Positions 1 through 14,460 of a stretch of DNA of 64,000 bases are shown piece after piece. Position numbers and translations under genes: made by a program. Origin of the DNA: Yuukianura sp. NJ FZ-2021 (Eukaryota); assembly GCA_046563655.1 (NCBI GenBank), contig CM102286.1, positions 14,756,001 to 14,820,000 of the forward strand, in the 5' to 3' direction. The notes under the pieces were generated by a model that saw only the letters and a program-made list of their open reading frames with translations, was not told the origin of the DNA and ran no database searches. Position 1 is the stretch's first letter. Each line of letters opens with the position of its first letter.

Positions 1-1094
1 CACATTGCCAAACTCTACCAGCGTGAAGTGTTTAATGCATTTGAAGCTGCGAGGGAAGCGAACGCAAAGTACGAAAATACTGTTTGGGGCATAGCTCTGA
101 CCAGTTTCCTCTACATGGGACCCCGGAATGACCAAATTCTGCAGTTCTTAGAAACAAACCGACCACAAGCACGTCAATACGGACTCAAAATTGGCGTCAG
201 AATTGATTTTTGTGACCAAATCCTTCAGACGAACCTACTTGAAGAAGAGTACATGTAGTTCTTTATTTCAAAATTTTAACCTCTAAACCAAGGTTTTGAC
301 TAGGGATTTTCTTTAACAGGTTGGGTAATACCTCATATTTTTTTTCGATTTTGTAAGAAAAATTATCTTTTCATTTCGGTGCATCGTAGTTAACAATACA
401 CCCATTTTTTTTAAATTTTGCATACGAATTGGTATCAATTTTTTGGATTGGTACTAAATTCGCACGAATTTGTGTTTTTTTAACAAGCGAGGTAGTACTC
501 ACCCTGTTAAAGGAAATTAACTTTTCATTGTCAAGGAACCTTGCTCTAAACTATCTTTTTGAAATTGTCGTTTTGAGAACCTTTTTTTTTTGAAATGTCA
601 GACAAGGCCTTTATTCCGCCGTTCCATTGTCTCCCGAAGACCAACCTCTGTCAGATATTCAAAGAATTGCGCGCGCAGCGGATTTTGTGATATGCATTAA
701 TCAGCCTCCTGCGAATTTGGTGAGTCAAGGAGTAGAGGTCGCTGCGGAGTCATTGATGGCCGAAATGACGTTGATTCAGAAACTCATGAAACAAGAAAAC
801 GAGGTCATTGACCTCTGGTTTGAAACTGGCTGGCCAAGTGCCGGCATTAGTAGAAGTGGTTCAAAAAATACTGCCCGAAATCTACGAACTTATTGGAATT
901 TGATGTCCCAACTTGGTACCAAATTCAAAATTCATCTGTACATGTTCACTGCCTTTGATGAACCGTGGAAGATCAATCCCAAAGCAAACATCACTGATCC
1001 GCATGGTCCTAACGGTGCGGAATCACACTACGGTTGGTGGCGACTGCTGGACAACAATGACTTTTCGAAATTTGAAGAAAAAAAACTGCGGTAA
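1..1094 (+). CDS. 3' part of GH17 (beta-1,3-glucanase-like) gene, paralog of the RTK ectodomain, ending without TM/kinase (5' end outside window)
   Basis: Exons ~1-254 and 602-1094 closely parallel 3251-3623 and 4039-4529; motifs WFETGWPSAG and FTAFDEPWK...AESHYGWW; stop after FEEKKLR where the paralog splices to its TM exon. Confidence 0.8.
289..543. mobile_element. MITE, P-element type (CAAGG...CCTTG) in GH17 intron
   Basis: Inverted ends CAAGGTT/AACCTTG, subterminal TTAACAGG/CCTGTTAA, exact 8-bp TSD CTCTAAAC at 281-288 and 544-551. Confidence 0.8.
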
Positions 1095-2191
1095 AAATAC
1101 TGCGTACACCAAGTATACGATTCTGTCAACAGATTCTTTGTACACTGCATTTTTATGTGTAGCAATGCAACTGTGTAAATAAAATGCACTTTTCGCCTCC
1201 GCTGAAATCTGTAACATCTTTCGTCCACTTGAATCCGTAAAGTTTTTACATGTAACCAACTCCAGAACTTCACGGTAAGAAATACATGCAGCATACTCCT
1301 TCTTTTAGTTGTGTTTCCAATACATTCTGTCGTTACTTCTGCTATTGTCATCCGTTTTACAATTTTCCTGAAAATTGGGGTTTGAATTGATTTCAAAACG
1401 GCTGTAAGGGCTCCCCCGTATCCCCTGACGACAATTTCAAAATTTTCAAGGTCACTTAACTCCTCAAACGTTGTTGGCAAGTACTCTGGTGACCCTTTAA
1501 TCATGACATCAATTTCATCATCAATTTCTTGTTCAAAAAACGGCAGGGAAATAAAATTTATACCTTTGGAAAATAAAATTTTCCATGGAGGGGCATTGTT
1601 GCCTAGGGTTTTAACTCTGTGTTTACCTCTCCTTTTATTTCTGTTTTTATCTCTATTCGTATCTCTGTTTTTATCTCCGTTTTTATCATCGTTATCTGTG
1701 TTTATCCCAGACGTAACTTTGACTAAAACTATGTAAAATGGTAAAACTATTCCAAAACAAATTCCAACGAGTAAGAAAAATGCATCAATTTGAAAAGCGT
1801 TAAAACTTGAGGTTTTAACTGGAAACCGTGTACTTAAAACTACATTACCAGTTACAATTAAATGTGAAAAATAAGCAACTTTGAATCTACCTATGTGCTG
1901 TGCAAGCGTAGCAATATCAATATTTCCCTTAGCAATTTGTCCGATTACTCCCGAGTAAGTTCCATTCGTTAATTCAGTTCCATATTCCGTATCTGGATGA
2001 GTAGATATGGAACAATTTAGAGTTGATTTACATGCATCCAATACTGGACTGCATACCCCTCCATAGTATTCCCATTTCCCTTCATTTTGTTGAAAATTCA
2101 CCAAAACTGGATTTCTTTTAGACGTGGAATATCTTAGAGTCCTTCCATTCAAATTCCTTGTGTAATCTGGAAATAGCTGCTCAGAGGTCAT
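1085..2191 (-). pseudogene. Intronless ionotropic receptor (IR/iGluR-like) fragment, apparently frameshifted and 3'-truncated
   Basis: S1-like YGTELTNGTYSGVIGQIAKGNIDIA, M1 hydrophobic helix, PTTFEEL; the S2-like continuation appears in another frame (ORF 1023-1259); no clear second TM helix; no ATG start. Confidence 0.6.
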
Positions 2192-2561
2192 TGACCTTTC
2201 TAATTTTTAGTTTTGACATTATAAGATACATTACTTTTGTATTTGTCAAATACAAACACAATTCGAATCCAACTTCTTAATTTGAAATTAATTAGAAATG
2301 AACCGCTAAATATTTATTTTGTGAAACTCCAAGTTTTGTTCAAACCACAAAACTTTCAACAGAAAAATCAATGAAGGAAGAAAGGAAGGAAGTGCGGTTT
2401 CAAGTTCCGTGAAAATTCAATGTCAAAACTGAAATTTCCAGTATAAAATGAAACTTTCCTCAAAAACAAATTACGTCTAGTTTGTAAATTTAGTTAAATT
2501 CTCTGTTTGCTTTTACGGAAACCCAGAGTTAATTTTTTACTTTTCGTAAGCAAGTCCAAGC

Positions 2562-5500
2562 ATGATTTCTTTCCTGGTAGTTTTGCTGCATGCACTTTGT
2601 CAAAGTTTAGAAACCGTAATTAACAAACTAGAAAAACAATTAATAATTAATGATAATAATTAATTAAATACATAATGTAATATAATAAATAGATTGCTTT
2701 GACTGATTTGGCTGGTCCGTCGTCGTTCAATTTGACCTACACTGGCGTAGTTTTTGGTCCATACGTTAAAAACCGATTGTCCGATGGCAGTACGCCGAAT
2801 TGGAAAAGTTACTCGGAAGAGGAACTCAGTGCTCTACTCAAATTAACTTCAACCAAATTCAAGCATATCACAACATATGGAATGGGCGTTGGCGGTAAGA
2901 TCCAAAATTTTATCAAAATATCAAATTTTGAAACCAGATGAACCAAGGTTTCTTGACAACGCAAAGTAAATTTTATTAACAGGTTGGGTGTACTACCTCG
3001 CTTGTTGGCAAAAAATTAGTACTAATCCGGAAAATCGGTACCAATTCGTACGCAAAATTTAAAAAAATTAGCTGTATGACTACGATGCCCTGAAATGAAA
3101 AGATACTTTTTTTTACAAAATCGAATAAACCTGAGGTATTACCCAACCTTTTTTTTTGGATAAAAAAACAGGTTTCTTTAATAGTTTACCCAACCTGTTA
3201 AAGAAAATCAAAAGTCAACACACCTTGAGTTTAATAGTGAACCATTTTAGATCCGAATGGCCACTGGCGTCATGGAGACCGCGCTGGACTCGTGCCGTTT
3301 CTGTCAGCGGTGCACAACTCTAACAACACCAACCGCAAGTTGTCCGTGTCTATTGGGGTTTGGCACAACCAGGATCCCAAACTCTACCAACGTGAAGTGT
3401 TTAATGCATTTGAAACTGCGAAAGAAGCGAACGCCCAGTATGAAAATACTGTGTGGGGCATAGCTCTGTCCAGTTTAACGTACTTGGGCCACAGTAATGG
3501 ACAAATTCTCCAGTTCTTAGAAACAAACCGACCACAAGCACGCCAAAATCGACTCCAAATTGGCGTCAGAATTGAATTTTGTAACCAAATCATTCCGACG
3601 CAACTACCTGAACAGGAGTACATGTAGTTCCTTATTTCAAAATTTTAACCTCTAAACATAAGGTTCCTAAAGCAACGAAGTAGTTTTCCTTTAACAGGCT
3701 TGGCAATAAGTTTACAAAAAATCCCGCCCCGAACAATTTTTCCGTAGAGTTGTCAAGGCGATTTTTCGTTTTGTTTCTTTTAACGTTAAAAGACAAAAAA
3801 TCGAAAATTGCCCTGACAACTCTATGATTTTTTCCGGGTTTTCCGTCAATCCCATTTGATTACATATAAATCATTGCCATATGAAGGCACGGTGAAGCAT
3901 GTTTTGCTAATTTCTTAACAAAATTTAAAAAGTTCTAGTTATTGCCTAACCTGTTGAAGAAAAAACTATTTTCTTGTTGAGGAACCTTGCTCTAAACATT
4001 CTTTTTGAAATTGTCGCATATTTGTTGTTTGAAATTAGACAAGGCCTTCATTCCGCCGTTCCATTGTCTCCCGAAGACCAACCTCTGTCAGATATCCAAA
4101 GAATTGCGCGCGCAGCGGATTTTGTAATATGCATTAATCAGCCCCCTGCGAATTTGGTGAGTCAAGGAGTAGAGGTCGCTGCGGAGTCATTGATGGCCGA
4201 ACTGACCTTGATTGAGAAACTGATGAAAAAAGAAAACGAGGTCATTCACCTTTGGTTTGAAACTGGCTGGCCAAGTGCCGGGATTAGTCAGAGTGGTTCA
4301 AAAAATAGTGGTCGGAATTTACGAACTTTTTGGAATTACATGAACCAACTTGGCGCCAAATCCAAAATTCATCTCTACATGTTCACTGCTTTTGATGAAC
4401 CGTGGAAGATCAATTTAAAAAAAAATATCACTGATCCGCATGACGGTCCTAACGGTGCAGAATCACACTACGGTTGGTGGCGACTGCTGGACAACAATGA
4501 TTTTTCAAAGTTTGAAGAAAAAGTGGCCGGTAACAGAACAATTTTTTCACACAAGCTTCATCTTTAGTTCAAAATTTTGAAAATTTCAACATTTTCCCAA
4601 ATTTCAAGATTTTCATAATTTTTTTTAGAACCGGAGGAATTTAAGGAATTTAGTTTGCCCGGGGGAGCTGTAGCGGGAATAGTCATTGCCGTTTTGACTC
4701 CGGTCATAGTTTTTTTGGTTTGGCGGTTGTATAAAGCCAGAGTAAGGTTTCAAAATTTTGAAAATTCGTCCAAAATTTTATACTTTTTCATTTTTTCGAA
4801 AATAGAAAACTATTGAACGCATTAGTGAGAAAGACATCAAGGATTTCATGGAGGGAATGACAGGAAGTGGAAAAGGAGATTCGGTAGATGTCGCTCTCCA
4901 GGTTCCGTACGACAGAAGCTACGAATTGTCCAAAGCGGACTTTGTTATCGGTTAGTTTTAAAATTTGTAAGTTTCAAAATTTAAAATTTGAAAAACTCTA
5001 AATTTTAAGTTTTTTTTTAGATGAGTCAGATATTCTTGGGAGTGGTGCTTTTGGTGTTGTACATAAAGGAAAAATCACTGGAATCGATGGAATCGTTGCA
5101 TTTAAAAGACCAAACAAAGACATTTCAGTGGCACAACTCAAAAATTTGCTATCCGAAATCAAAATTATGATTTACATTGGACGGCACGAAAACATCGTCG
5201 TGCTACTCGGGGCTTACACGGAACAAATTAGAGAAGGTAAACTTTTTTGAAAAATTTTGAATTTTTGAACTTTTTGAAATTTTGATTCTAGGTGTGGTGT
5301 ACATTGCCTCTGAATGTTGTTCACTCGGGAGCTTGGAATCCCATTTGCGAAGTATTCCAAGAACGTTTACAACAGTTGCTTATGAAAATATTACCAAAAC
5401 ACAACCAAATTCAAGTGATCCTTATGAAAATATGACCAAAACACAACCGAATTCACGTGATGTCAGATATGTCAACTGTGACCGGTAAAATTTTGACTTT

Positions 5501-6553
5501 GACTTTGTTCAAACATGTTTGAACAGGATTTTCAAATTTTGAATTTTTAGAAAACCGGTTGAAATTACAACGACTGTTCCGACCTTGAGCTTGTACAAAT
5601 GGTCATTTCAAATTGCAAGTGGCATGGAATACTTAGCCAGCAAAAGAGTAAGCATCGATTCCTAAAGTTTTTCTTAAGTATTGACCTTTGACCTTCTGAC
5701 TGATTTTGACCCTGGTCTTCGCCTTTTTGACTGACGTTGACCATGACCTTTGCTTTTTGGCTGATTTCTACTTTTGACCTCTGCTTTTAATGCTGATTGG
5801 GAACTGCCGCTCGCTACAGAATGAGGATTGCTAGGAAGACATCAACTGGGACTGACAGCTCGAGGGTTAGAGCGCTACCCGGATTGAAGAGATGCGGGTT
5901 CGAGTCCCACTCTGTTCCTTATTTTTTCCAACCTCTCGTTCTTTTTCTCTCAAATGATGTGACCACTGAACTTCACATCAACCTTGACCTTTGACCTTTG
6001 CTTTTCTCTGCTTCTAAAGGTCGTTCACGCGGACTTGGCCACCCGAAATGTTCTTTTGACTGAGAACGGGACTGCCAAAATCTCTGATTTCGGCCTTTCC
6101 CGCCGGCTGTATGAGTACACACAGTATGTCAAGTGCAGTCAAGAACCGTTGCCATGGCGATGGATGGCGATCGAATCTCTGCGCAGTCTCGCTTTTTCGA
6201 CCGAGTCAGACGTTTGGTCATTCGGAGTCACCGTGTGGGAGATATTCTCTCTCGGAGATATGCCTTATCCCGGATTATCTTGGGATATCACCTTTGTAGA
6301 ACAATTGGAACGCGGATTGCGTATGCAACTCCCAAAATACGCGACAAATCCAATGTAAAACATAATCCATAAACATAATTTCCTTTTTGATTTATATATT
6401 TTAATTATATGTAAACACATTTTATTTACTTTTTATAGTTATGAACAGATGACGCGATGTTGGAACATTGATCCGAAGGCTCGTCCAAGTTTTACTGAGC
6501 TCAAAGCATTTTTTGAACTTTTGACCTTCGAAGAACAAAAACTAAATTGTTAG
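2562..6553 (+). CDS. Receptor tyrosine kinase with GH17 glycoside-hydrolase-like ectodomain (PVR/VEGFR-like kinase, non-RD)
   Basis: In-frame GT-AG exons 2562-2615 (signal peptide MISFLVVLLHALCQS), 2693-2894, 3251-3623, 4039-4529 (GH17), 4629-4741 (TM AVAGIVIAVLTPVIVFLVW), 4806-4950, 5021-5236 (GSGAFG, VAFK), 5292-5484, 5551-5647, 6020-6354 (HADLATRN, DFG, LPWRWMAIE, SDVWSFG), 6439-6553. Confidence 0.88.
2944..3227. mobile_element. MITE, same subfamily as 289-543, opposite orientation
   Basis: CAAGGTT...CACCTTG ends; interior is the approximate reverse complement of 289-543 (gtactacctcgcttgtt, ccaattcgta, gaggtattacccaacct). Confidence 0.75.
3659..3989. mobile_element. MITE, P-type ends, second internal subfamily
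   Basis: (T)AAGGTTCC...GGAACCTTG flanked by CTCTAAAC on both sides; interior shared with 54793-54999. Confidence 0.75.
5845..5930 (+). mobile_element. tRNA-derived SINE-like element / tRNA pseudogene in RTK intron
   Basis: A-box-like CAGCTCGAGGG, B-box GGTTCGAGTCC, T-run terminator; anticodon stem does not pair; related copies at 36695-36780 and 63605-63680. Confidence 0.65.
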
Positions 6554-6981
6554 TGCCCAACTTACAATGCAAAATTGAAGTAAAAAGTGAATTGACATAT
6601 ATAAATACATAAAAATAAGCAAATAAATAAGTCAAATAAAAATAAGTTAATCATATACTTGGAATTCGTCTGGTTCAACATAAGACAGACAGACGGACGA
6701 TGTCAAACCAGTAAGTAGCTTTCCCTACTTAACTAATCACCACTCAATTTGATATTCAGATTCAAATTTAGATGGGTCAACATAAGAGTAAAAGAAAGGA
6801 TACTCGTAACTGCGTAGTCGCATTTGCTGGAAACTGTTTTGCATGAGTGGTTCTTTTGGTAAGACTTTTCCAGTCAAGTGCCCCGAGGTGAGTGAGCCCT
6901 TAAGTGACCTCTGGTGGTCACAAACTCCAAATCCACCTTCCACTTTCCTGAGGTGTCTCAGCACTTTGAGTTTGGGGAACA

Positions 6982-8072
6982 CATAGAGTAACCATGACGA
7001 TTCGATTTTTTTTTCTTTTAACTAGAGTGGACATAAGGCATTTTTTCAACAAAATTTTTGAAACATTTCCAAAGCGAAGAAAAAACCGTTTTCATCTCAA
7101 GTTTAAGCCAGGTTCACACAACGATGAATTGCAGGTACCATTTTACCATTACCATTAACTACTTAAAACTATTTAGAATTAAGTGAGATTTTATTTCACA
7201 AGAGAGTTTAAATTCGCGAATCGGAAATACTCCGGATCTAACATTACTGACCTCTGAAAATTACAGTTTTGTTGCAAGAGTTACGAATACGTAATGGCCC
7301 TATCTTAGAAACCACGCTATCCCTCTTTCTCCCTCCTCTTATACCTCCAGCTTCCAACTAGTGGAGGGCAGGCGAGAAGAGAAATTGTCAAAACTCAACT
7401 CAATGTAAGAGTTTTGCACATTACTCGAAGTTTTACGGTAACCGTGGGAGGAGTGAAATGAGAAGAGCCAATCAGAGGAGTTTCTAAGATAAGGCCATTA
7501 CTGTAGTAGTTGGGTTTAGCTTAATGGTTTCCTGTTTGGCTATGTAATGAAACCTAATCTTACAGTATTGTCTAATGACCAAGCGAAGCAAAGTAAGCAC
7601 GTGTGAAAACTCAAAAGTGTGTTCATCCATGCTGATCATCCTCAATTCTCCGAAGATGTCCCCTTCCTGAAGAGTTTGGAGGGTGACAACGTTAAGTATT
7701 AGTAATCAGAATTAGGAAATAGTAACTTTAATTTAACTTTTTCGAAAGCAATTTTAGCAGGAGGACGAATTGTTGGGTTGCTGTCACCACTTCTAGGCAT
7801 ACTATTAGTCACCAGTTTTATCGTGACAGATATGGGCGGATATTTTGTCTCAAAACCCTTGCTTTTCGCAATTTTATTCATAATTTTAGAAATTTTGAAG
7901 GCTGAAAATCTAAATTTCATTTTTTGTGTGAACCTTGCTTAAACTTCGGATGAAAGCGGTTTTTTACCTCTTTTAACCTCTTTTAATTTGTTTCAAAAAT
8001 TTTGTTGAAAAAATGCCTTATGTCCACTCTAGTTAAAAGAAAAAAAAATCGAATCGTCATGGTTACTCTATG
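6982..8072. mobile_element. Non-autonomous DNA transposon with long TIRs (CATAGAGTAACC...), P-element type
   Basis: Near-perfect TIR of ~85 bp, degenerate out to ~140 bp; exact 8-bp TSD GGGGAACA (6974-6981, 8073-8080); paralogs show the empty site; no transposase ORF. Confidence 0.92.
7291..7501. mobile_element. Small inverted-repeat element nested in the 6982-8072 transposon
   Basis: GTAATGGCCCTATCTTAGAAAC ... GTTTCTAAGATAAGGCCATTAC (21/22 inverted match). Confidence 0.6.
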
Positions 8073-9980
8073 GGGGAACATGCCCATCACTTGGTTTAGT
8101 TCCGGAGAGAGACAGGCCGTTGTCATGGAAATAACGAGGAATTCCAGCTGAGGGATTTCAATCGGAACGCCATTTTCGTCTTTCCCCGGGAACATTTGTG
8201 TGAATTCTTCTGTACTTTCTACAAACGGAACGGAAATGCATGTGAGTGATTTGAGACATGGCAAAACCGAACTAAACCTTTCAGATCCACCCTGACAACC
8301 AAACAAAAGTTAAAATTTTGAATTTTTTTTTGAAATTTTGAATTGTGCATATGATTGCTTACCAGAAACAGAAGTCGGAGGCTCATGACATCGCTGAGTC
8401 GAGTATCAGTTAGGTCGAATGTCAACCTATGGATGATGCTCAACTCTTCCATTGCTGGCATCACTGGCATTTCATTTTTGAAAACGGTTTTGTGCTCAGT
8501 TAGGTTGTGCAAAAATAGTTGGCAAATCCTCAAAGTCTTTGCATATGGCAAGATTGTTTTGGGAACGAAGGGTTCGCGTACAGGAAAATCGTATTCGTCC
8601 ATCCTTATCCACGCATCATGACTGTAGGTTGTGACTGTCAAGTACTTGAGTGGTCTCGGCAGAGGAGTGAAACAAATGTCATTAATAAGATTGACACGAA
8701 TTCCCTCCAGAGTCCGAAATGCAAGGTCATCAAGGTCACAAATAGTTTTGAGAGCTTTCAAACACGGGCGGACTTTGTTTCTATGGCGATCTAAATACGG
8801 AAAGTACAGAGGATACGAACTCAAGTCCAGAAAACGCAATCGGTGCTCGAATACTTTCAAAAAGTGAATGTAGGATTCCAGTGTCCATTGCTCGTCTGGA
8901 TACTCATGGCCAGTCTACAACAAAACAAATTTTTAAACAGTTCACTTTTTGTCAATTTTTTTTTTAAAGTTTTCAAATTTTAGCTAAAAAATTACAAATA
9001 TTGCTTCTGCGTGTTCATGTTTCACAAATAGGCGAAATCCGAGTGACTGGAAAGTTGGCGGGAGTTTGAGATTGAGCGGGAGACTTTGAACTGCTTCGTC
9101 CGTGGAGTTGACCAGCACAAGAGCGAGTTTGCGCAGATGAGTGGTTTGGGTTAAAATGTTGACGAGGAATCCAGCATCTCCAGCATCCCGCAGCATCAGT
9201 TCCAAGTACAGTTCAGTTGTGATGTTGGTCGTTGCTAAGGGCTGCAGCAACATTTTGGAAATGCAATCAACGTACAACTCACAATTCTTTTGCGTAAAGT
9301 ATGGTTTGAAGAGCACTGGGATCTGTTTATCCCCGCAGTAGTAGCCTCTGTCGCATGGCCAAGGATATTTCATGAGCAGAGACAGTTTGAGTGTGTGCCT
9401 GATGTGATGTTCGGCTAAAAATTGCGCAACTTCTTCCAAAGTTGCAAGTGAAGAGGGTTCATGTGGCACGAGAACTTTTTGGCTGAAGGCCCTCCCCCCT
9501 GCGAAGGCCCAACTTTTGCACACGAATCGCGCTGATTTCAAATCAACCAAATCCAAGTAGCTCAACACTTCATCCAAAACCTGGAAAATACAAACAATTT
9601 TGAGACTTACTGAAGAGGAGGAAATTTTTTGTTTCAAAAATTTCAATTTCTACCTCCAGATTACTGTTCAACTTTTCCTGAGCACTTGATTCCATTGCCA
9701 TCACTTTCAGCAAATGAATGAAACACTTTAATGTTTCTCTTTTTGTTTTGAATTTTGTAAAAGTAGTTTTATTTTTACTTTTGAGAAACTTTCCCTCTCC
9801 TTGTGCTCATTTTCCATTTCGAATGAAAATCAATAACTTTCTCTACAAGGGCTTCTCTAATCCACTGAATTTGCTTATTCTGGTTTTTCATTTTGAAGCT
9901 GCAGTTTTGGATTTCCGTAAATAACCAAAATTTGAAGCAAAAAATTAAATTAATCATTTTATTATCAATTATTTAAATTA

Positions 9981-11864
9981 TTAATCATTAATTTCCACTT
10001 GAAATTCGTCTGGTTCGAGGTACGAGTAAAAGAAGGGGTAGTCGTGACTGCGCAGACGCATTTGATGAAAGCTGTTTTGCATTAGTGGTTCTTTTGGTAA
10101 AACTTGTCCAGTCAAGTTACCCGAGGTCAGTGACCCCTTAAGGGTCCTGTGGTGGTCACAAACACCAAATCCACCTTCCACTTTCCTGAGGTGTCTCAGC
10201 ACTTTGAGTTGGGGGAACATGCCCATCACTTGGTTTAGTTCCGGAGAGAGACAGTCGGTTGCCATGGAAACCACGAGGAATTCCAGCTGAGGAATTTCAA
10301 TCGGAAGGCCATTTTCGTCTTTCCCCGGGAACATTTCTGTGAATTCTTGTGTACTTTCCGCAAAGGGGACGGAAATGAATGTGAGTGATTTCAAAGATGG
10401 CAGAACCGAACCAAATTTTTCAGATCCACCCTGACAACCAACAAAAAAAGTTTAAATTTTGAATTGTTTTCTGAAATTTTGAGTTGAGCCAATCAATTTC
10501 TCACCAGGAAGAGAAGTCGTAGGCTCATGACATCACGGGATCGAGTGGATATTTGGTCGAATGCCGATCTCTGCACAATACTCAACTCCTCCAGTACTGG
10601 TAATATTGGCATCGTATTCTTGCAAGTGATGTAGTCATCTCTAGGGTACAAAAATAGTTGGCAAATGCGCAAAGTTGTTGCGTATGACAACAGCGTTTTG
10701 GGCACGAAAGGTTCCCGCCTGTAATTGTTCTCTTGAACACAACTGTATTCGTCATGACTGTGACTCGTGACTGCCAAGTATGTGAGCGGCCTCGGAAGAG
10801 GGGTTAAACGAATATAATTAATGAGATTGACACGAAGTCCTTCTAATCTGCGCAGTGCAAGGTCATCGAGGTCACAAATACTTTCGAGAGCTTTCAAGCA
10901 CGAGCGGACTTTGTATCTATGGCAATCCAAATGTAGAAGGAACAGTGGATACGAAGTCAAGTCCAAAAAGCGAAGTCGCTTTTCGAATACTTTGAAAAAG
11001 TGAATGTAGGATTCCGGTGTCCATTGCTCCGGATACTCATGAGCAGTCTGCAGACAAACAAGACAAACTAAATTTTTAAACAGGTGATTTTTCGTCAAAT
11101 TTGGAACGTTTTGGAAATTTTAGTTAAATTTAGAAAATTACAATTATGGCTTCTGCGTGTTCATGTTTTACAAAAAGGCGGAATCCAAGTGACTGGAAAG
11201 TTGGCGGGAGTTTGAGATTGAGCGGGAGACTTTGAACTGCTTCGTCCGTGGAGTTGACCAGCACAAGAGCGAGTTTGCGCAGATGATTGGTTTGTGCCAA
11301 AATGCTGACGAGGAATCCAGCATCTCCAGCATCCCGCAGCATCAGCTCCAAGTACAGTTCAGTTGTGATGTTGGTCGTTGCGAGGGGACGCAGCAACATT
11401 TTCGAAATGCAATCAACGTACAACTCGCAGTTTTTCTGTGTAGCGTATGATTTGAATTGGTCAATGGTACGGCTGATAGGGTCTTTGTCGGGTACATAGG
11501 AGTGGTGGTAGAGTCTGTCGCATGGCCAAGGATATTTCATGAGCAGAGACAGTTTGAGTGTGTGTCTGATGTGATGTTTGGCTAAAAATTGCGCAACTTC
11601 TTCCAAATTTGCAAGTGAAGAGGGTTCATGTGCCACGAGAACTTTGTTGCTGAAGGCCCTCCCCCCTGCGAAGGCCCAACTTTTGCACACGAATCTCGCT
11701 GATTTTAAATCAACCAAATCCAAGTAACTCAACACTTCTTCCAAAACCTGAAAAATACAAACATTATTTTGAAATTTACTAAGAAAACGAAGAAGTTTTG
11801 GTTTGAAAATTTCAATTTCTACCTCCAGAGTACTGTTGAACTTTTCCTGAACACTCGATTCCAT
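9981..11864 (-). CDS. F-box protein gene copy B (apparently intact)
   Basis: ORFs 11130-11873, 10493-11098 and 9981-10394 form exons homologous to copies A and C; N-terminal F-box motif; no insertion seen. Confidence 0.8.
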
Positions 11865-12170
11865 CTCCACCACATCTCCAAAATGAAGAAACGGATTTAA
11901 AATTTCAATTTTTATTTTGAATTAAAAGAATTTTGGAAAAATGGTTTCATTCTTAGTTTCTGAGAAAGTTTCCTTCTCCTTGTATTCACTTTCCATTTCA
12001 AACGAAAATCAATAACTTTCTCTACAAGGGCTAATCTAATCCACTGAATCTGCAGATTCCCGTTACTTTTTAATTAATTGTTAAGGAGTAAAATTGGCGA
12101 TGCCAGATAAACAAACACAGGCGGACAAAGTCAAACCAGTAAGTACCTTTCGTTATCGTTACTTAAAAAA

Positions 12171-14251
12171 CTAATCACCATTCTCTATTTGAAATTCAGA
12201 TTCAGAATCGTGTGGTTGTACGTAAAAGTGAAAGAATGGGTAGTCGTGACTGCGCAGACGCAGTTGGTGGAAACTGTTTTGCATGAGCGGTTCTTTTGGT
12301 AGAACTTGTCCAGTCAAGTGACCCGAGGTCAGTGACCTCTTAAGGGTCCTCTGGTGGTCACAAACTCCAAATCCACCTTCCACTTTCCTGAGGTGTCTCA
12401 ACACTTTGAGTTGGGGGAACATGCCCATCACTTGGCTCAGTTCCGGAGAGAGACAGTCGGTTGCCATGGAAACGACGAGGAATTCCAGCTGAGGAATTTC
12501 AATCGGAATGCCATTTTCGTCTCTCCCGGGAAAAATTTCTGTGAATTCTTGTGTGCTTTCCACAAACGGGACGGAAATGAAGGTGAGTGATTTCAAAGAT
12601 GGCAGTACTGAACTAAACTTTTCAGATCCACCCTGAAAACCAAAAAAAGTTATGAAAAAGTCTGAAATTTTGAATTGTGCCGATGCTGACCAGAAACAGA
12701 AGTCGGAGGCTCATGACATCGCTGTGTCGAATACAAGTTTCGTCCCATGCCGACCTCTGAACAATACTCAACTCCTCCAGCACTGGCAATATTGGCATCG
12801 TATTCTTGCGAGTGCTGGATTCGTCGTGGTATGGGTACAAAAATAGTTGGCAAATGCGCAAAGTTGTTGCGTATGGCAACAGCGTTTTCGGAACGAATGG
12901 TTCAACTCTGAAATTGTCAAAATGGTCTCTGAAATCAGCTCCACTGTATTCGTCATGACTGAAACTTGTGACTGCCAAGTATTTGAGCGGCCTCGGAATA
13001 GGGGTCAAAGTGATAAAATTGGACAAGTGGACGCGTAAGCCTTCAAAACTGGCAAGTGCAAAATCGTGACGCTCACAAATTGTAACCAGTGCTTTGATAC
13101 AAGAATTTCTTTTGTCGAAGTCATCCAGACAAAGGCAAATCGGATACGAAATACAGTCGAGAAAACGCAATCGTTGCTGAAACGCCATAAAAAAGTGAAC
13201 GTAGGATTCCAGTGCCAATGTTGCAGGATAATAATGATTACTCTGTACAAAAAAATGACAAAGGATAATAACAGTATTTGCGAATTTTTGAATGAAAACT
13301 TTTTTTTTTTTAGAAAGTTACAAATAGTGTTTCTAGGTGTTCCGGTTTTACACAAACTCGAAATCCGAGTGACTGGAAAGTTGGCGGGAGTTTGAAATTG
13401 AGCGGGAGACTTTGAACTGCTTCGTCCGTGGAGTTGACCAGCACAAGAGCGAGTTTGCGCAGATGAGTGGTGTGGGTCAAAATGCTGACGAGGAATCCAG
13501 CATCTCCAGCATCCCGCAGCATCAGTTCCAAGTACAGTTCAGTTGTGATGTTGGTCGTTGCTAGGGGCTGCAGCAACATTTTTGAAATATAATCCAAGTA
13601 CAACTCACAGTTTTTCTGTGTAAAGTATGATTTGAAGTGGGCAATGGTACGGTTGGTCGGGTATTGGCCACCTTATATCGGAGTGTAGGGTCAATGCCAT
13701 TGCATAAAAAAAGACATCAACAGAAAAGACATCAACAACGCAAACACATCAACAATGAAAACAAATCAGACATCAACTTCCTAACCTAACCAACCTAACT
13801 TTGCAGTGCTGATGCCTTTTTTGTTGATGTCTTTTGTGTTGATGTGTTTTCTGTTGATGTCTTTTTTTATGTAATGGCGTGCTTCGGGAGTCGTGGTAGT
13901 TTCTGTGACATGACCACGGGAATTTCATGAGCAGAGACAGTTTGAGTGTGTGTCTGATGTGATGTTTGGCTAAAAATTGCGCAACTTCTTCCAAAGTTGC
14001 GAGGGACGAGGGTTCATGTTCCACGAGAACTTTGTTGCTGAAGGCCCTCCCCCCTGCGAAGGCCCAATTTTTGCACACGAATCTCGCTGATTTCAAATCA
14101 AACAAATCCAGATAGCTCAATACTTCATCCAAAACCTCAAAAATACAAACATTATTTTGAAATTTACTAAAAAACGAAAATGTTTTGGCTTGAAAATTTG
14201 AATTTTTACCTCCAGATTCATGTTGAACTTTTCCTGCACACTTGATTCCAT
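12171..14251 (-). pseudogene. F-box protein gene copy C, exon 2 interrupted by a small MITE
   Basis: Same exon series; ORF 13773-14132 runs into the repeat and stops; homology resumes in another frame (13310-13603). Confidence 0.65.
13690..13885. mobile_element. Palindromic MITE with ACATCAAC subrepeats and CCTAAC core
   Basis: GCCATTGCATAAAAAAAGACATCAACAGAAAA vs TTTTCTGTTGATGTCTTTTTTTATGTAATGGC; absent from copies A and B. Confidence 0.75.
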
Positions 14252-14460
14252 CTCACTTCCAAAAAAAAAATGAAACAACCGCTTCAAAATTTCGCCTTTT
14301 TTGTATTTCGTAAAACTAGTGTTATTTTTAGTTTTTGAGGAACTTTCCCTCTCCTTGTGCTCATTTTCATTTCAAATGAAAATCAATAACTTTCTCTACA
14401 AGGCTTGTCTAATCCACTGAATCTGCCGATTCGTGTTGCTGTTCACTTTTTAAATATGTT

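Follow-up and report, generated by a model that had tools for sequence, protein, structure and literature searches.

Does a glycoside hydrolase family 17 (GH17) domain which retains its nucleophile motif, and shows no glutamate where the acid/base catalyst is expected, still cleave glucan, or has it become a binding module? This question is raised by a gene in a 64,000-nucleotide stretch (the window) of the genome of the springtail Yuukianura sp. NJ FZ-2021 (98.7 Mb GenBank assembly GCA_046563655.1, contig CM102286.1, positions 14,756,001 to 14,820,000 of the forward strand), whose ectodomain the original prediction took to be a non-hydrolysing, glucan-holding pseudo-enzyme. By its sequence the region encodes a real GH17-derived domain that lacks hallmarks of an active GH17 enzyme, and normal hydrolysis has very probably been lost. 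We propose, with a probability of about one half, that the gene product is a single-pass receptor tyrosine kinase whose ectodomain would bind beta-1,3-glucan without cutting it, and whose kinase would be activated by clustering.

The window carries eukaryotic DNA in which introns are short. As modelled from the DNA alone, the gene (window 2562-6553, + strand) comprises 11 exons separated by ten GT-AG introns and has an open frame of 777 residues, in which a signal peptide is followed by the GH17-like domain of exons 2-4, a single membrane helix in exon 5 and finally a tyrosine kinase (Table 1). All parts of a receptor tyrosine kinase are hence found in a single reading frame of this DNA-based model. 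The kinase shows the Gly loop, the Lys, the catalytic Asp and the DFG motif (at 5038, 5098, 6026 and 6086, respectively), with a catalytic loop reading HAD rather than HRD. We take pY-x-N to be an SH2 docking consensus, on which basis the YxN motifs of the kinase insert are candidate sites. Receptors of the PDGF/VEGF class are defined by ectodomains of immunoglobulin domains; Pfam searches of exons 2-4 recovered PF00332 alone and no immunoglobulin domain, which by this definition places the gene outside that class. The GH17-like domain begins in exon 2 (at 2693), outside the interval of 3440..4500 that had been proposed for it.

The relationship to GH17 extends across the domain. Exon 4 matched PF00332 with E 1.4e-5 and 25.3 bits, under the gathering cut-off of 28.2, and its best PDB sequence matches were GH17 proteins. 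Profiles including the exons of the window gene recovered exclusively GH17 structures as their top structure matches, with E 2e-16 for RmBgt17A (4WTP/4WTR) and 8e-18 for Formosa FbGH17A (6FCG), and an HH-suite match to a protein annotated as GH17 reached 99.2%. The Atlas model of the ectodomain of an Orchesella fusion (P0041), a relative which informs on the fold only, gave template-modelling scores of 0.67-0.72 by query against GH17 models, and an Atlas feature search with exon 3 yielded leads only (best 0.88).

The two GH17 glutamates are situated at the ends of strands 4 and 7 (bioRxiv preprint 10.64898/2026.01.22.701063), and in RmBgt17A they are Glu99, the proton donor, and Glu189, the nucleophile (PMC11005184; this and the other papers are cited for particular passages). 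In the window gene NTVWGIALSSLTY is encoded at 3445-3483 and ETGWPS at 4259-4276, in two exons of one modelled gene; the latter motif is intact, as originally predicted. The strand-4 segment aligns gap-free to TVWGITFTNEY of L010, an intact paralog from the same genome, with Leu161 falling on the glutamate, and this column is occupied by Glu in 37 of the 37 homologues found with L010 (Asn-Glu in 36). A 61-row profile containing the exons of the window gene places the same column opposite VGNE of 6FCG and VGSE of 4WTP, and another profile alignment also ties the strand-4 glutamate of 4WTP to it. Counted along the alignment, Glu133 and Glu223 of the 4WTP chain equal Glu99 and Glu189 by a single offset of 34, which also fits Trp65, Glu75, Ser98, Tyr102, Asn152 and Phe154 (PMC11005184). 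While the strand numbers of the window gene are inferred and the acid/base position is assigned by alignment, the strand-4 correspondence drawn by eye in the original prediction was correct, and the Asn-Glu motif that it reported as absent is indeed missing.

A wrong register at strand 4 was considered, as a second MAFFT run introduced a one-residue gap, and rejected, as neither register supplies an acid. No Asp or Glu is found between Glu150 and Glu176 (residues 151-175), and register errors therefore cannot restore the site. A sequencing error is ruled out by the codons TTA, TTC and TTG present at this position in three copies. Ser160 in place of Asn is no defect in itself, RmBgt17A also having Ser there. 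Thus, among the features expected of an active GH17 enzyme, the acid/base glutamate is replaced (Leu161), the nucleophile is present (Glu284), and both the strand-6 Asn and its accompanying aromatic residue are replaced (Ile242 and Gln244).

The losses are selective. We collected 183 database proteins and six genome models, 134 of which had a single match with at least 200 profile positions aligned, and used as an enzyme set 55 proteins without membrane helix or kinase; these were picked for both glutamates, which makes their 55/55 at those columns circular. At a conservation of 90% or more this set yields 40 columns, of which the window gene retains 34. The six lost are Asn160Ser, Glu161Leu, Asn242Ile, Tyr244Gln, the Gly preceding the nucleophile and the conservative Val281Leu, five of which lie at the catalytic centre, a grouping made post hoc. 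The strand-6 Asn and Tyr are found in 53 and 54, respectively, of the 55 two-Glu homologues, and each is retained in 1 of 14 kinase fusions. Besides the nucleophile, the window gene retains the equivalents of Trp65, Phe230, Glu235, Arg238/Lys272, Trp271 and Glu242, the residues lining subsites -3 to -1 in characterised enzymes (PMC11005184). Given that the glycone-side residues are kept and the losses concentrate at the catalytic centre, the glycone half of the groove is, by alignment, preserved, and the cutting point and the +1 side are remodelled. The suggestion that the groove was kept thus stands for the glycone side of the window gene; it does not stand for the strand-6 Asn and Tyr, nor for most of the other kinase fusions.

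Searches of the genome with exon 3 and with exon 4 each recovered six loci, which is a lower bound because a Pfam search of the same genome recovered only four of the six. L010 and L011 stop directly after the domain and carry the strand-4 motif FTNEY and the strand-7 motif GETGW, with both glutamates present; L008 and L009 show the same ectodomain-helix-kinase order as the window gene. The closest database matches to a paralog were Allacma fusca proteins (79% and 65% identical). A full HMMER search recovered 2418 proteins at E 0.001, of which the best 150 were examined. The domain is followed by a kinase in 11 database proteins, several with a partial kinase; 10 of the 11 are Orchesella cincta or O. 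dallaii records. The acid/base glutamate is present in none of the 14 kinase fusions (these 11 and three of this genome) and in none of the 9 forms whose records show a membrane helix and lack a kinase. The other 111 aligned proteins have Glu in 64 cases, lack it in 42 and show a gap in 5. Among those lacking it, many cluster with the fusions and could represent exon fragments, but some are full-length proteins that have no membrane helix, and loss of the glutamate is therefore not limited to receptors. The nucleophile is present in 9 of the 14 fusions, including the window gene and L008, and also in an ectodomain-only duplicate discussed below, and paralog L009 has Asp and Gln at the acid/base and nucleophile sites, respectively. 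This distribution of the two glutamates among the fused and anchored forms implies that catalysis is dispensable in the family.

In an IQ-TREE tree of 53 rows, chosen by hand among the 134, all fusions (13) and anchored forms (3) that had been entered fell on one branch, with weak support (83/56), and on this topology the fusions probably descend from one event; the window gene and L008 grouped at 100/99. Bacterial proteins, among them the Nitrospira cluster of P0039, are close relatives of the family, including its stand-alone soil-arthropod members, and, with a root that differs between two trees, a bacterial origin of the GH17 gene is likely from these affinities.

Several other members deserve mention. 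P0059, P0064, P0069 and their relatives (one an O. dallaii record) are GH17-like proteins of about 400 residues with neither the acid/base glutamate nor a membrane helix; placed on a branch apart from the fusions in the same tree, they are possibly separate soluble pseudo-enzymes. Two-Glu members in mites (P0023 of Oppia nitens, P0056 of Dinothrombium tinctorium) and a fungus gnat (P0028 of Pseudolycoriella hygida) indicate a patchy range among soil arthropods. In the Orchesella records P0136 and P0156, matches of about 600 residues precede the membrane helix and kinase, which suggests two GH17-like domains in tandem. P0041 (Orchesella cincta ODM95569.1) has Gln at the acid/base column and retains the nucleophile, which is the pattern of myrosinases. 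Word-index searches, an insensitive method, recovered one protein from 655 candidates with exon 4 (P0001, 802 residues, no kinase) and P0041 alone from 6076 with a profile of the dead ectodomain. As surveyed, with these searches insensitive to longer fused relatives, the fusions range at least over this genome and Orchesella.

The window also contains an upstream paralog, which reads NTVWGIALTSFLY at 76-114 and has Phe (106-108) at the acid/base column, so that here too the predicted absence of Asn-Glu was borne out. It was considered as a second receptor and excluded, as it reaches a stop and has neither membrane nor kinase exons of its own. Its origin is a tandem duplication, about 4.1 kb long, that took in an ionotropic-receptor gene together with exons 1-4; the junction, near window 1085, accounts for the stop at 1092-1094 and for the missing membrane and kinase exons. 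Over 350 codons the two copies differ with a synonymous divergence (dS) of 0.27, a nonsynonymous divergence (dN) of 0.08 and dN/dS of 0.31, and with L008 as outgroup 7 private amino-acid changes fall in the upstream paralog vs 14 in the receptor gene, a difference that is not significant. Judging from these values the upstream paralog looks maintained, and perhaps it serves as a soluble binder. Both ionotropic-receptor copies belong to this same duplication, a broken one at window 1028-2207 (- strand) between the two GH17 genes and an open one of 668 codons further upstream (L007:5732-7738, - strand).

The catalytic-centre losses, in a domain that precedes a membrane helix and a kinase whose catalytic motifs are present, support the earlier proposal of a non-hydrolysing receptor ectodomain. 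In the mechanism that we favour, the spliced receptor would be made from the modelled exons, and a glucan chain or fragment would occupy, uncut, the -3 to -1 half of the cleft. A polymeric ligand would draw receptors together, upon which the kinase would autophosphorylate and SH2 adaptors would dock on the YxN insert; these three steps would follow the general behaviour of receptor kinases. For glucan as the ligand we consider the chances to be even. The likeliest source would be the walls of fungi taken as food or met as pathogens. Secreted paralogs with both catalytic residues could generate ligand fragments, and the ectodomain-only duplicate could bind them in solution. A more elaborate version, in which a bacterial-type glucanase gave rise to a springtail receptor tyrosine kinase for beta-glucan after a copy had been disabled at its catalytic centre and joined to a kinase, with intact secreted sister enzymes cutting the fungal wall into ligands and the soluble duplicate tuning the signal, is more tentative.

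Several points weigh against the glucan receptor. The strand-6 Asn and Tyr and the acid/base glutamate contact the -1/+1 sugars in characterised enzymes (PMC11005184), and the loss of these contacts could weaken binding considerably. The groove glutamates, which in RmBgt17A are Glu235 and Glu242, are found in 3 of the 14 kinase fusions, all three from this genome, and in 0 of the 9 membrane-anchored forms; being so rarely kept, they suggest that glucan binding may not be a conserved function of the family, and the better-kept groove of the window gene may stem partly from lesser divergence. The 23 fused or anchored forms appear from the tree to share one ancestor, and would hence not represent 23 independent losses. 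Finally, even for the intact arthropod enzymes the substrate is assigned only by analogy with the family.

Such observations lend some weight to a dead enzyme whose present ligand would be a protein, a glycolipid or a glycan other than beta-1,3-glucan, with the barrel as an evolvable binding scaffold. The Orchesella fusions widely lack the groove residues and show a variable strand-4 loop and long branches, and the -1/+1 contacts are gone even in the window gene. We nevertheless regard this alternative as less likely for the window gene, which retains 7/7 strand-8 and loop residues, Trp123 and the nucleophile, none of which would be needed after a change of ligand. Retention of the nucleophile in the window gene, its duplicate, L008 and 9/14 fusions could instead point to a slow or trapping enzyme, in which the nucleophile attacks a glycoside and, with no acid/base catalyst, a lasting covalent intermediate keeps the ligand attached to the receptor; such intermediates do build up, with activated substrates, in acid/base mutants of retaining glycosidases. 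Natural glucan requires acid assistance for its leaving group (PMC11005184), the strand-6 neighbours of the nucleophile are gone, L009 carries Gln in place of the nucleophile and 5/14 fusions lack the Glu, and as the nucleophile is also a sugar contact its retention could be explained without trapping, which makes this alternative improbable. The loss of normal hydrolysis, being common to the glucan receptor, the changed ligand and the trap, is correspondingly more probable than any one of them.

Continued catalysis through a relocated acid, such as Glu194, where strand 5 is inferred to end, or through an external acid/base, as in myrosinases, which use ascorbate, is slightly less probable still. 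Glu194 lies on the neighbouring strand, with Asp at or beside its position in the duplicate, L008 and P0041, and the latter combines Gln at the acid/base column with a retained nucleophile. Yet the Glu194 column is acidic in just 4/22 fused or anchored forms and 7/55 two-Glu enzymes, the fused set has gained no acidic column, which also excludes a conserved replacement acid, and Leu presumably cannot position water or a cofactor as Gln can. The weakest alternative, a modelling artefact or a decayed glucanase gene beside an unrelated kinase, could appeal to splicing modelled from DNA and to the broken neighbouring ionotropic-receptor copy, but is very improbable given the single 777-codon frame yielded by ten GT-AG introns, the same order at L008, L009 and in 11 database proteins (10 from Orchesella), and the dN/dS of 0.31.

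Table 1. Features of the receptor gene and its upstream paralog (window coordinates)
Feature	Position	Strand	Basis
Upstream paralog, exons 3 (ending at 254) and 4 (602-1094)	1..1094	+	Alignment; stop at 1092-1094
Exon 1, likely signal peptide	2562..2615	+	ATG, hydrophobic stretch, GT donor; by-eye call
Exon 2, start of GH17-like barrel (inferred strands 1-2)	2693..2894	+	Alignment with the N-terminal region of intact homologues
Exon 3, inferred strands 3-5, with Trp123 and Glu134 (= Trp65 and Glu75 of RmBgt17A)	3251..3623	+	Alignments
Leu161 codon TTA, acid/base glutamate column	3475..3477	+	Alignments with homologues and 4WTP/6FCG
Intron between exons 3 and 4	3624-4038	+	Gene model
Exon 4, inferred strands 6-8	4039..4529	+	Pfam PF00332 E 1.4e-5; top PDB sequence matches GH17
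Strand-6 site, Ile242 and Gln244 instead of conserved Asn and Tyr	4133..4141	+	Alignment with two-Glu homologues
Nucleophile Glu284 (ETGWP), codon GAA, retained	4259..4261	+	Aligned with the Glu that 4WTR has as Ala
Glycone-side groove, Phe325, Asp329, Glu330, Trp332, Lys333, Glu351, His353, 7/7 retained	4382..4468	+	Alignment; subsite roles of RmBgt17A/MlGH17B equivalents from PMC11005184
Exon 5, single predicted membrane helix, then basic residues	4629..4741	+	Hydropathy maximum of 2.71 over 19 residues, at residue 386
Exons 6-11, juxtamembrane region and tyrosine kinase	4806..6553	+	Two exons match Pfam PF07714 (E 3e-38 and 5e-9)
Kinase insert, three YxN motifs, candidate SH2 docking sites	5381..5479	+	Two motifs from a 42-base tandem duplication that doubles Tyr-Glu-Asn

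Among further features of the locus, introns 2 and 3 of both copies (255-601 and 2895-3250) share an inverted repeat of about 230-260 bases, and 3745-3824 is self-complementary; these are possibly remnants of small transposons. Intron 9 (about 5800-5915) has by eye the look of a tRNA-derived repeat, and ARAGORN found no tRNA within 1-12000. The gene is followed by an F-box-like gene in three tandem copies (6737-14252, - strand), and just upstream of the window lie two tandem chemoreceptor-like genes (L007:1994-5338, - strand), both identified by eye.

Turning to known systems, RmBgt17A and FbGH17A align with the window gene in the nucleophile motif and the glycone-side residues; unlike it, they have the strand-4 Glu and strand-6 Asn and are soluble, with no membrane helix or kinase. 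The nearest family by sequence (27-35% identical to the window ectodomain) comprises the stand-alone secreted GH17 proteins of soil arthropods, namely P0002/P0003 of Allacma fusca, P0011 of Folsomia candida, P0021 of Orchesella dallaii, the above P0023 and P0028, L010 and L011. In contrast to the window gene, all of these have both catalytic glutamates, and a kinase is found in none of the two-Glu proteins examined. P0041 and the other O. cincta and O. dallaii records share the GH17-like ectodomain lacking the acid/base glutamate, the helix and the kinase, although most, unlike the window gene, lack the groove glutamates. They have been named from the kinase alone, P0041 automatically as VEGF receptor 1, and their ectodomain is undetected by Pfam at E 0.001.

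Dead glycosidases acting as sugar sensors are already known from insect betaGRP, and plant GH18 receptor kinases are further examples; tobacco CHRK1, a plant GH18 receptor-like kinase, is reported to lack its catalytic glutamate. The passage of PMC5485988 instead calls its domain predicted enzymatic; CHRK1 resembles the window gene in bearing a glycoside-hydrolase ectodomain on an intracellular kinase, and differs from it in family and in being a plant receptor-like kinase. Insect betaGRP/GNBP are glucanase-derived recognition proteins, many without the catalytic region (PMC9459437), and by inference the window receptor would work like them, though they have a GH16 fold and a separate N-terminal domain, act in the Toll and prophenoloxidase pathways and involve no membrane kinase. 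The whitefly Bta06115 is likewise a GH17 protein acquired horizontally by an animal, but it is plant-derived, secreted and active, with both glutamates, and the passage reporting it in 2025 states that its authors knew of no earlier animal GH17 (PMC11800479). Our literature search, with subscription journals largely outside its scope, found no study of the Orchesella fusions and no description of a GH17 pseudo-enzyme joined directly to an animal tyrosine kinase as a receptor; in the main text of the O. cincta genome paper (PMC4987106) the lone mention of 'kinase' is unrelated, and its supplementary tables may list these genes. With complete enzymes, disarmed receptors and a soluble disarmed copy in one genome, the transition from enzyme to receptor can be tested with a few recombinant proteins. 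Were the ligand a beta-glucan, the system would illustrate a way in which soil arthropods that feed on fungi may detect them, and the conversion of a gene probably acquired from bacteria into a signalling receptor, and a glucan-sensing receptor of this kind would constitute a class of animal glycan receptors unrelated to GNBP/Toll or lectin receptors.
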